IMG/VR virus record: IMGVR_UViG_3300037466_003757
Coordinates: 118,680-172,958 of that record
Origin: a virus
Taxonomy: Duplodnaviria; Heunggongvirae; Uroviricota; Caudoviricetes
Direction: 5' to 3' (one strand)
DNA: 54,279 bases
Part shown: piece after piece, positions 19,118 through 22,261 of the stretch
Position numbering within the stretch: the stretch's first letter is position 1
Layout: every line of letters starts with the position of its first letter
Position numbers and translations under genes: made by a program
The notes under the pieces: generated by a model
Seen by the model: only the letters and a program-made list of their open reading frames with translations
Databases searched by the model: none
Told to the model about the DNA's origin: nothing

Positions 19118-19597
19118 ATGCAAATGACATCGGAAAAGAAACGCACACCGCAGCGAGGCGAGTCGGTTGCAATCGGTTTTCGCGACGGTCCGATTCTGAA
19201 ACAAACAGAGGTCGACTTCGAAGAGATGTTCTGCAGGGACGACGGTGAACCGACCGCAGTTCTTGTCAGTTACGTCACGACGGACGAAAAACTTCACGAT
19301 AAACGAGTCAACGTTTTGTTCAACTGGAGAGATATCGTCTCGATCACGTGGGACGCTGAGTCGAATAAATCGGCGGATTCCAAATCCCATCGTGTTGGTA
19401 TGGCCAGCGAAAGTGATGCCGCGACGGGTACAGTGAAAGACGAGGACAAAGCTTCGACTATCGCGCGTCGTTTCATGGATGGCTTCATGACAGGCGTCGC
19501 GAAAGAATTATCGACTGAGGAGGGCGCTGAAGCTCTCAACAAACTTCGTGAATACGCTAAGCGTGTTGGTCAAGTCGGAAAAGGTGACGGCGAGTGA
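19118..19597 (+). CDS. Hypothetical protein
   Basis: 159-aa ORF coupled to the next gene by GTGA overlap. Confidence 0.65.
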   Translation: MQMTSEKKRTPQRGESVAIGFRDGPILKQTEVDFEEMFCRDDGEPTAVLVSYVTTDEKLHDKRVNVLFNWRDIVSITWDAESNKSADSKSHRVGMASESDAATGTVKDEDKASTIARRFMDGFMTGVAKELSTEEGAEALNKLREYAKRVGQVGKGDGE

Positions 19598-20589
19598 CTA
19601 TTCTCGGACTCGAGTCCATGCATCCGCGGACCGAAGACGGTGCGATCATTGTGTCGCAGAGCGATCTCGGTGCCTTCAAGACTGATCGGCGAACGTGGTT
19701 ACTCGGTACGTATCTCGGTCTCAAGTCACGCGAACCGCTGATTCTTGGACCTTTGCGTCTCGGAACACGCGTACATCACGCTCTCGAATATTACTACGGT
19801 TACAGTGAAGATCTTCTCGAAGCCTACAAAAAATTGGTAGACAGCGAGTATCAGGATCTGATCGAGTCACGTGTCGTGTTCGATGAACGCGCGTGGCAGA
19901 AAGAAATCGAACTCGGTCGTGTCATGCTCGAGGGATACAGCGAATATCTCGAAGAAACCGGCGCGGACGAGTATCTCGAGATTCTCGGCGCTGAGAAGGT
20001 ACTGTCTCACACGTTCGATATCGAGGGAACACCAGTCGTTCTGCGCGGTAAGGTCGACTGTCGAGCTCGCAACACGTTCACGAACATGAACTTGGTGATC
20101 GACTTCAAGACCACCGCATCGTTCGAACGTCTGATTCCGCTGGCGCCGCACAGCGAGCAGCTGTTGACGTACTGCGTACTCGAAAAGCTTCACGCCAAAG
20201 AGACCGGCGACACCGAGCACATGCTGCAAGGTGCGATGTTCATCATGTTGCGAAAGGTCTTGCGCGGCACGAACTCTCGCCCACCGTACTATCAGCGGAT
20301 CGAAGTTCATCATTCGGAGAAACGGCTGCGATCGTTCTATACGCAGCTGTACGGAACGCTTCGTGATTATCTCGCTGTCGTGAAAGCGCTGGATGCGGGA
20401 GTCGATCACCGAATCGTCGCGTATCCGAATCCAGGATGGCATACCAGATGGTCGCCGTTCAAGCACGTCATGGAAATGATGGATGATGGTTCGCGTGTCG
20501 AAGACATGATCGCCGATTTGTATGTGCAATCGGATCCTCACGAACGATACCGGCAAGAAAAAACGGATCTTCTGTCGCAGTTCGAGTAA
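19594..20589 (+). CDS. Cas4/RecB-like PD-(D/E)XK exonuclease
   Basis: SQSDLGAFK, GTRVHHALE, GAEK, LRGKVD, VIDFKT, QLLTY. Confidence 0.8.
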   Translation: MTILGLESMHPRTEDGAIIVSQSDLGAFKTDRRTWLLGTYLGLKSREPLILGPLRLGTRVHHALEYYYGYSEDLLEAYKKLVDSEYQDLIESRVVFDERAWQKEIELGRVMLEGYSEYLEETGADEYLEILGAEKVLSHTFDIEGTPVVLRGKVDCRARNTFTNMNLVIDFKTTASFERLIPLAPHSEQLLTYCVLEKLHAKETGDTEHMLQGAMFIMLRKVLRGTNSRPPYYQRIEVHHSEKRLRSFYTQLYGTLRDYLAVVKALDAGVDHRIVAYPNPGWHTRWSPFKHVMEMMDDGSRVEDMIADLYVQSDPHERYRQEKTDLLSQFE

Positions 20590-20690
20590 TTAAAAAATGA
20601 CATTCGAATATTACGTAAGCCATTCTTGACTTTCGTATGTCGCGTTTAAAGAATGCGAACTACAAAACGTTGAAAAACATCATGCATTCG

Positions 20691-20722
20691 GTATACGCTT
20701 AACGAAAGAAACGTGATACGAT
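20691..20722 (+). promoter_or_regulatory. GTATACGC box plus extended -10 (GTGATACGAT)
   Basis: Upstream of the Sak4-like/SSB genes. Confidence 0.6.
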
Positions 20723-20805
20723 AAATCTCGCCGCGGAATTATGGTGGCGAATTCCCGAATTGTTGCTGCGGCAACACGATGAGTAAAGTGGGGTGATGCC
20801 AAATC

Positions 20806-21546
20806 ATGAACCGTGCAATTTCTATCCTCGTCCACGGTCATGCTTGAACGGCTAAAACCGGGAAAAGCACATTCGCTGCAACGTCACCAGGACCTCGACT
20901 TCTTCTCGACGTAGAAGCAGGTTCGCGATTCTTGAACGTCACTTCGACACCTTGGGATCCGAATACTCAAGCGCCACCGGCAGACGACGGTTCATGGGAC
21001 ACATGTATTGTTACGGTACGTCATTACGATGACGTTATTCGCGCTTATGAATGGCTGCGTTCGGGTAAGCATCCGTTCAATAGCGTAATTGTCGACTCCG
21101 TCTCGGAATTGCAGCAACGACTCGTCGAAAAAGTCACGAATCGTATGGCTGCACAACAGCAGGACTGGGGTGAAATTCTCCGGCAGTTCATGGGAATTAT
21201 GCGCGATTTTCGTGACCTGACAGAGAATCCGGTCAAACCGCTCACCGCAGTCGTTCTCGTTGCGATGTCGGTACCGGGACAGGACGGAAAATATCGTCCG
21301 TTCGCGCAGGGACAGTCGCGGATCATGCTTCCGTATCTGTTCGATATTCTCGCCGCGTCGAATGTATTGACGTGGGTGGACGACGCGGGAAATCAGCAGA
21401 CGCTGTATCGTTTGCTGTTCCAGAGTCCCCAGTATGAAACCGGCGAACGTGTTGGTGGACGTGTAGGTCAATTCATGGACAACGCCACCGTTCCAATGAT
21501 TCTGGATGCTGTATTCGGACCGCTTCCAGACGAAGTTACCGCGTAA
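20806..21546 (+). CDS. Sak4/AAA_24-like recombination ATPase with an in-frame TGA and 9-nt insert in Walker A (recoded gene or pseudogene)
   Basis: SD GGGGTGAT; ATG 20806 gives MNRAISILVHGHA*TAKTGKSTFAATSPGPRLLLDVEAG, in frame with ORF 20932-21546 (VIVDSVSELQ, MLPYLFDI). Confidence 0.8.
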
Positions 21547-21574: not shown

Positions 21575-22261
21575 ATGCCACTGCAGAGTTGGAATCAGCT
21601 GGTTCAAGAAGCTGGCGATATCAGCGGTGATTTCGAGGTTCTGCCTGCGGCAGATTACGATCTCGAAGTCGTCAAGGCCGAGCCAAAGCAAGCCCGTTCC
21701 GGCAAGCTGATGTACTCGTGCATGTACAAGGTCATCTCGGGTCCGTCCAAGGGACGGACGTTGTTCGATCAGCTTGTTCTGACGACTGACAACCCGAACG
21801 CGTTGCGTATGTTCTTCGTCAAGATGGCGGCAATCGGTATCGACAAAGGTTTCTTCGCTCAGAATCCGAGCGATCAGCAGGTCGCCGAGCAGCTCGTCGG
21901 CAAGCAGTTCCGCGCACAGGTCGGTATTCGTAAGTACAACGGCGAGGACAAGAACGAGGTCAAATCCTACTCTCGTCTGAACCGGACGCCCACAAGCGGA
22001 CCGCAGGGCATGCCCGCGCCGATCGTTGCGTCACCGTCGCCGCTGTCTTCGCCGCCCGTCAAGTCGTCGCCGGCTCCGTCGCCCGCTCCGGTGAGCGCAC
22101 CTCCCGCCGCTGCTGCGACTCCGGCACAGACTGCAGCTCCCGCTGCGCCCGCTGCAGAGCCGATCAAACAGGCGGACGTTCCGCCGATCAACGAGCCGGT
22201 CAAGACGCCCGACGCCCAGCCGGTATCTGTCGCTCCGGCTGCTCCGGACGATCCGTTCTGA
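21575..22261 (+). CDS. DUF669-like ssDNA-binding protein
   Basis: FEVLPAADY, KAEPK..SGK.M, GRTLFDQL, QLVGK, NEVK; Pro/Ala-rich tail ending DDPF. Confidence 0.75.
   Translation: MPLQSWNQLVQEAGDISGDFEVLPAADYDLEVVKAEPKQARSGKLMYSCMYKVISGPSKGRTLFDQLVLTTDNPNALRMFFVKMAAIGIDKGFFAQNPSDQQVAEQLVGKQFRAQVGIRKYNGEDKNEVKSYSRLNRTPTSGPQGMPAPIVASPSPLSSPPVKSSPAPSPAPVSAPPAAAATPAQTAAPAAPAAEPIKQADVPPINEPVKTPDAQPVSVAPAAPDDPF

Follow-up and report, generated by a model that had tools for sequence, protein, structure and literature searches.

A candidate short programmed translational bypass in the Walker A motif of an actinophage Sak4-like gene and its probable relation to homing-endonuclease immunity

The window, the whole stretch of 54,279 nt analyzed here, makes up the final 54 kb of an IMG/VR virus record, which is 172,958 bp long and has direct terminal repeats. 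The record is therefore considered to be a metagenome-assembled phage genome, and this 173-kb genome is that of an actinophage. The hosts of the phages carrying the interrupted Sak4-like gene described below are probably actinobacteria. In the window, the Sak4-like gene (20806..21546) lies between a Cas4-like PD-(D/E)XK exonuclease gene upstream (19594..20589; Pfam PF12705, PDDEXK_1, E 4e-13) and a DUF669/SSB-like gene downstream (21575..22261; Pfam PF05037; PHROG 378 and 6015, single-strand DNA binding protein), all on the plus strand. The Cas4-like exonuclease gene and the Sak4-like gene constitute a conserved module and appear in the same order in metagenomic relatives. The order of Cas4-like, Sak4-like and DUF669/SSB-like genes is common to the Gordonia phages Sixama, GMA2 and GodonK. 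The intergenic spacer between the first two genes (20590..20789, plus strand) is empty in the window, and its 3' end is occupied by an HNH_3 ORF in six relatives. The distance from the Cas4-like gene to the Sak4-like start codon is 216 nt in the window versus 167 nt (L006) and 183 nt (L007) in relatives without an HNH gene, so that the window spacer is about as long as theirs. The DUF669/SSB-like protein (21575-22261) has a C-terminal low-complexity tail of ~90 residues rich in Pro, Ala and Ser. Outside the window, the homologue of GMA2 Orf17 (G000:C1:8969-9991, minus strand), a gene of the structural region, is present as two same-frame pieces split by ~330 nt that are missing from GMA2; this extra stretch may be an inserted domain or element.

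The Sak4-like gene is preceded by a Shine-Dalgarno (SD)-like element GGGGTGATGCC (20790..20800, plus strand), which is kept as GGTGATGCC in the alignment of relatives. The start codon ATG is at 20806-20808, six bases after this element. The DNA alignment showed that the SD and the start region are conserved between the window and the nearest metagenomic relatives. The first part of the ORF (20806..20844, plus strand) consists of 13 codons, MNRAISILVHGHA, the last of which is the take-off codon GCT (20842-20844). These 13 residues are identical to the first 13 residues of P0002, the closest intact relative. The next 9 nt (20845..20853, plus strand) are the coding gap, composed of TGA (20845-20847), ACG (20848-20850) and the landing codon GCT (20851-20853). 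The second part of the ORF (20854..21546, plus strand) starts from AAA (Lys of GKS) and contains 230 codons and TAA. It begins with AAA ACC GGG AAA AGC ACA (KTGKST) and stays open to the TAA at 21544-21546. This part is the AAA_24/Sak4-like core, and it includes the remaining Walker A (20854-20871) and a Walker B-like VIVDS (21085-21099).

No contiguous Walker A of the form GxxxxGK[ST] is present in a single frame. The TGA breaks the motif, and only the skipping of 20845-20853 restores it; the removal of these 9 nt gives ILVHGHAKTGKST, which has the Walker A GxxxxGKS. The gene matches Pfam AAA_24 (PF13479) with 51.2 bits against a cut-off of 27, and PHROG 124 (Sak4-like ssDNA annealing protein) with an E-value of 1.1e-26. 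The conventional ORF reported by gene callers (P0001; 20932..21546, plus strand) starts from TTG and encodes 204 aa. It begins past strand beta-1 and Walker A and is unlikely to be the functional product. The initial annotation had described a good SD and an ATG at 20806, a TGA after 13 codons and a GCT at 20842 repeated at 20851, and this layout was confirmed on the sequence. Its assignment of the gene to Sak4-like ATPases, the clean P-loop it obtained by deleting 20845-20853 and the loss of Walker A it noted for the TTG 20932 start all stand as well. As a separate observation, the 8-mer CTTGAACG at 20843-20850, a segment that includes most of the insert, is found again 88 nt further downstream at 20931-20938, where it overlaps the TTG used as the start by gene callers. 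A match as good as this repeat was seen in ~2% of shuffles. The window insert could have been copied from this nearby sequence, or the repeat could be due to chance.

Comparison with relatives indicated that the 9 nt at 20845-20853 are an insertion specific to the window. P0002, which is 79% identical and comes from a 74-kb Logan contig, has MNRAISILVHGHAKTGKT at this site, without precisely these 9 nt. Its sequence MNRAISILVHGHAKTGK corresponds to the predicted product of a hop over the insert, and this predicted product is thus the natural sequence of the sister gene. The first 17 residues of the predicted product are identical to those of the uninterrupted protein of this nearest relative. 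In every relative aligned at the protein and DNA levels, including cultured phages and the nearest metagenomic relatives, the gap is of exactly three codons. The exact insert TGA ACG GCT was not found in a second genome, and the copy in the window is a single assembly occurrence.

Homologues with short called products were considered as candidates for further interrupted genes. Three of them, P0054, P0140 and P0114, only had miscalled starts and were rejected as intact genes starting with GTG or TTG; the remaining homologues had genuine interruptions. Intact Sak4-like genes with GTG or TTG starts are found at L011:1386, L104:~2433 and L107:~2439, and they had been called automatically ~30-40 codons too short. 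Short products are therefore an unreliable sign of interruption in the Sak4-like family. Four further loci (L161/L162, L163, L164 and L165) were fetched via members of a linked HNH_3 family. In total, inserts of 5-8 nt break the P-loop at the position seen in the window in seven additional lineages, which come from other datasets: 5 nt in five lineages, 7 nt in one and 8 nt in one. The initial annotation had proposed to look for the insert in close relatives; the 9 nt are missing in all of them, and these analogous inserts are present in the seven other lineages. From the take-off codon onward, the sequences are GCT TAG GT GCC AAA in L013 (hop +8), TCC TAG CC AAG in L108/L109 (hop +5), GCT TAG CT AAG in L110 (hop +5), TCT TAG CT GCG AAG in L161/L162 (hop +5), GCT TAG CT AAG in L163 (hop +5), GCT TAG CT AAA in L164 (hop +5) and TCC TAG C TCC AAG in L165 (hop +7). 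In L013, L108/L109 and L110, the break is between the lysine codon of the P-loop and the codon preceding it. Since this codon boundary is broken in the seven other lineages as well, the feature in the window is more than chance.

The eight lineages, including the window, share the architecture of the insert. A stop codon directly follows the take-off codon in 8/8 lineages (GCT-TGA in the window). A skip to the triplet before the resume codon restores GxxxxGKS in all eight. The landing triplet is identical to the take-off triplet in five lineages (in the window, the GCT at 20851-53 just 5' of the resume codon), synonymous in one (GCT to GCC) and the same at 2/3 bases in two (TCY to GCY). For the seven relatives alone, the match is 3/3 bases in four, synonymous in one and 2/3 bases in two. 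The take-off and landing codons co-vary: GCT is paired with GCT, and TCC with TCC. The frameshifting inserts were ascertained without the requirement that a stop come first, and the chance of an immediate stop is ~3/64 per independent case by our own arithmetic. The hallmarks of bypassing named in the initial annotation, namely a stop right behind the take-off codon, a landing codon that matches it and a restart at the Lys codon, thus recur in 8/8 lineages and co-vary. Searches by DNA pattern for additional cases yielded 8 matches in IMG/VR, none of them Sak4-like by inspection, and 49 matches in JGI metagenomes, none of them Sak4-like by tblastn.

The interrupted genes are linked to one family of HNH_3 proteins. 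An HNH_3 gene is directly upstream of the interrupted gene in six of the eight lineages; it is missing from the window and from L108/L109. The family has six members in a database of 5.8 billion proteins, and 6/6 sit between a Cas4-like gene and a Sak4-like gene whose P-loop is interrupted. Such an arrangement is that of a free-standing homing endonuclease next to the gene it targets. The HNH_3 proteins from L013 and L110 are homologous, being 56% identical. Pairwise identities are 40-61% across the family and 47-82% among the linked Sak4-like proteins, for which reason the association is considered old, although individual arrivals of HNH_3 genes may be young. At 5/6 loci, the HNH gene ends with the TGA contained in the GGTGATGCC Shine-Dalgarno element of the Sak4-like gene; at L013, it ends with a TAG immediately before that element. 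Compared with L007, which has no HNH gene, L161 carries the HNH ORF as a clean insertion of 580 nt; its P-loop insert of 5 nt is a separate difference ~35 nt into the Sak4-like gene.

In the whole genome of the window, no HNH_3 gene was detected by profile search and no match to the linked HNH was detected by tblastn. No HNH remnant was found in the window, and the sole HNH gene of the genome (PF01844) is ~48 kb away. No relatives of the linked HNH_3 proteins were found in IMG/VR or JGI metagenomes, and cultured phages gave only distant HNH_3 domain matches; no cultured phage with the interrupted gene or the linked HNH_3 family, and thus no cultured, viable carrier, was found. In another relative, the intergenic position between the Cas4-like and Sak4-like genes is taken by a different HNH_3 gene (L107:1939-2445), which is unrelated to the linked family (17% identical). 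The P-loop of L107 is intact (HGPGKSGKST). This intergenic spot may be a general landing site for homing endonucleases.

The interrupted genes show no sign of further decay. All six complete interrupted genes have uninterrupted ORFs of 242-251 codons after the hop and no other lesion. Conserved columns were defined as alignment columns at least 95% conserved among 86 intact homologues. Each of the six keeps 45/45 of these columns, including the Walker B hhhhD and DSxSE in the window, while intact genes miss 0.5 of them on average and at most 6. The initial annotation had named further decay of the gene in relatives as evidence against its reading, and none was seen. In a quick maximum-likelihood tree of 90 sequences, which included four interrupted genes (the window, L013, L110 and L108), these four were placed at four separate, well-supported positions, each beside intact relatives. 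Their terminal branches are not visibly accelerated compared with those of intact sisters: 0.15 for the window versus 0.23 for P0002, 0.17 versus 0.13 for L013, and 0.30 versus 0.29 for L110. The branch of L108 (0.54) is longer than those of its neighbors (0.12-0.38) and is in an unresolved fork. The window gene itself thus has one lesion, 45/45 conserved residues and a branch of 0.15. L108 and L109 are strain variants from different sequencing runs with the same insert. They differ by 15 SNPs over 2,726 aligned nt, and 0/15 fall in the 743-nt interrupted gene.

The breaks at the same site in seven lineages, six of them beside an HNH gene, suggest that ribosomes most likely hop over the insert, as in T4 gene 60. 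A short programmed translational bypass of the Sak4-like gene, with an insert that probably provides immunity against a homing endonuclease, is the reading proposed here from sequence comparison, with a probability of roughly 0.6. The ribosome would decode 13 codons, and peptidyl-tRNA-Ala would be on GCU (20842-20844) in the P site when UGA arrives in the A site. The peptidyl-tRNA would then unpair, in competition with termination, the mRNA would slide by 9 nt, and the tRNA would re-pair with the identical GCU at 20851-20853. Decoding would then restart at AAA 20854, leading to a product of 243 aa with the intact Walker A GHAKTGKS. The most likely reason for the presence of the insert is that it destroys the target site of the HNH homing endonuclease that related phages encode directly upstream. 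It would then serve as an immunity mark, which the window would keep without the endonuclease gene. It is proposed that such an insert is tolerated only because ribosomes can hop over it. The stop-hop put forward in the initial annotation is the sole reading that restores the P-loop both here and in all seven interrupted relatives.

The efficiency of such a hop may be modest, and, as the initial annotation suggested, hopping may keep the recombinase at a low or regulated level. No stimulatory RNA structure was detected at 20790-20900 (MFE z-score 0.03), and no common hairpin was detected in the relatives. The ribosome would have made just 13 residues at take-off, and these are conserved in their role within strand beta-1 of the enzyme. 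With so short a nascent chain, the stimulators of the efficient bypass in T4 gene 60 are absent. Separately, expanded-anticodon tRNA-Val mutants enhance hopping in E. coli. In the genome of the window, ARAGORN reported a 76-nt tRNA with an 8-nt anticodon loop and the four-base anticodon 'gtac' (Tyr|Val) at G000:C1:105838-105913 (minus strand), ~12.8 kb before the window, in a 42-gene tRNA cluster, flanked by tRNA-Val(tac) and tRNA-Met. As GCU would not be read by it, no link to the stop-hop is claimed.

As the main rival reading, it is conceivable, though rather unlikely, that the alleles are inactive: the inserts would knock out the recombinase, either as scars of cleavage and imprecise repair or as mutations selected only for resistance to the HNH endonuclease, and the phage would do without Sak4 or use host recombination. 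In favor of this, the insert puts a stop codon in the P-loop, and the only conventional ORF, that of 204 aa from TTG 20932, has no Walker A. The insert may be recent, as the closest relative does not have it, and an endonuclease that recognizes a specific site can account for breaks that recur at one position. Sak4-like genes may also be dispensable, in which case a dead allele could persist. For resistance alone, however, neither a stop codon nor a matched landing triplet nor covariation is required, and all eight cases have these features, although the matched flanking triplets could come from a duplication-type mutation. The six complete genes with 45/45 conserved residues and no second lesion, the branches without visible acceleration (L108 being in the unresolved fork) and the 0/15 strain SNPs in the interrupted gene of L108/L109 are also against inactivation. 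Homing-endonuclease insertions are often young (bioRxiv 10.1101/2022.08.31.505936), and since homing elements can be recent arrivals, the intact flanks could reflect youth rather than selection. Against this, the HNH lineages are only 40-61% identical, yet none is beside a decayed gene.

Readthrough of UGA by a near-cognate or suppressor tRNA would lead to a protein of 246 aa with three extra residues (x-T-A) in the P-loop. The window insert, with its 9 nt, is in frame, and the phage encodes 42 tRNAs, including tRNA-Trp(CCA). None of the 42 has a UCA anticodon, however, and a UGA-suppressor tRNA was accordingly rejected. The resulting GHAxTAKTGKS does not fit GxxxxGKS, and no homologue has such an insertion. 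The seven related inserts, of 5, 7 and 8 nt, shift the frame, so that readthrough cannot rescue these genes and only a hop restores GxxxxGKS. Readthrough is thus very improbable here and cannot be the common mechanism. There is hardly any chance that the insert is an assembly or sequencing artefact, a doubt raised by the metagenomic assembly of the record with terminal repeats and by the single occurrence of the exact insert. A 9-nt insertion is atypical of short-read or homopolymer errors, the same position, leading stop and matched codons are found in seven lineages from independent datasets, and two of the related inserts are each present in two different sequencing runs. Several other explanations were rejected. 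An alternative genetic code with TGA as Trp or Gly is against the many long ORFs in the window that end with TGA, and recoding gave no coherent gain. Reinitiation after the stop has no in-frame start codon between the stop and the Lys codon in the inspected cases. A genome-wide phenomenon similar to 'byp' elements was not supported, as tblastn of the ORFs of relatives against the 173-kb genome revealed no other real gene with an internal stop among ~60 comparable genes. The excision footprint with a 3-bp duplication, offered as an alternative in the initial annotation, had no support: no transposon or other supporting feature was found, and the element linked in relatives is the HNH gene upstream of the start codon.

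T4 gene 60 is the best-known case of efficient translational bypassing. The T4 gene 60/MobA system was reportedly described by Huang et al. in 1988 and by Bonocora et al. in 2011. The Sak4-like genes resemble this system in the non-coding insert within a conserved enzyme gene, the stop right after the take-off codon, the matched landing codon just before the resume codon, the HNH-type homing endonuclease gene that adjoins the interrupted gene (in relatives here), and the presence of genomes that keep the insert without the endonuclease. The differences are also clear. The gap is 5-9 nt here instead of 50, there is no take-off stem-loop, and the 13-18 residues made before take-off provide no long nascent-peptide signal. 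The window gap has no internal SD. The target here is the P-loop of a Sak4-like recombinase instead of a topoisomerase, the hosts are probably actinobacteria, and the endonuclease gene is upstream of the start codon instead of splitting the gene. The Sak4-like stop-hop is likely, on balance, to be a short-range analogue of T4 gene 60/MobA, with both the bypass and the immunity putative here. In T4, the gene 60 bypass cassette blocks cleavage by MobA, and it persists in some phages after loss of the endonuclease (Manning & Atkins, bioRxiv 10.1101/2022.08.31.505936).

[quoted passage not shown] According to the same passages, no natural in-frame stop-hop was known in 2016. As described there, the synthetic hops are engineered +6 hops in which 9 nt encode one amino acid, and, as predicted here, the product lacks the residues that readthrough would add. 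The window differs from them with a putative +9 hop (12 nt for one amino acid) and the relatives with hops of +5 to +8, all in natural, apparently conserved genes. The passages also mention a candidate short bypass in a different actinophage gene, with a rare UUA codon and a KGWG nascent peptide (PMC5009743). It is short like the one here, and no endonuclease link is reported for it there. The mitochondrial 'byps' of Magnusiomyces capitatus are short mobile inserts in coding sequences, which ribosomes skip between matched codons (Lang et al. 2014; Nosek et al. 2015, cited in PMC5009743). In that account, they are 27-55 nt long, are present in 81 copies per genome and involve an unused A-site codon. 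The genome of the window has one interrupted gene among ~60 comparable genes.

The set comprises eight natural, diverged alleles of a single gene, in which the gaps measure 5-9 nt, a stop comes first and the take-off and landing codons co-vary; six of the alleles are linked to one family of homing endonucleases. If the bypass is confirmed, they would provide a small and easily mutated system for finding the minimal signals sufficient for hopping, and for studying the co-evolution of selfish nucleases and recoding. They would also reveal how frequently interrupted phage genes are truncated or discarded in error by gene callers, as in the case of the 204-aa ORF without Walker A. The odds are about even for the more specific proposal, drawn from the same comparisons, that the HNH family guards its own actinophage genome via a stop-first P-loop insert of 5-9 nt, which is hopped between matched codons. 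If this is true, the window would represent a 'hit-and-run' carrier and the first natural in-frame stop-hop. Natural stop-hopping over a short range would then be a solution that recurs and can be selected, and that probably applies in general to conserved ATPase motifs under attack by homing endonucleases.
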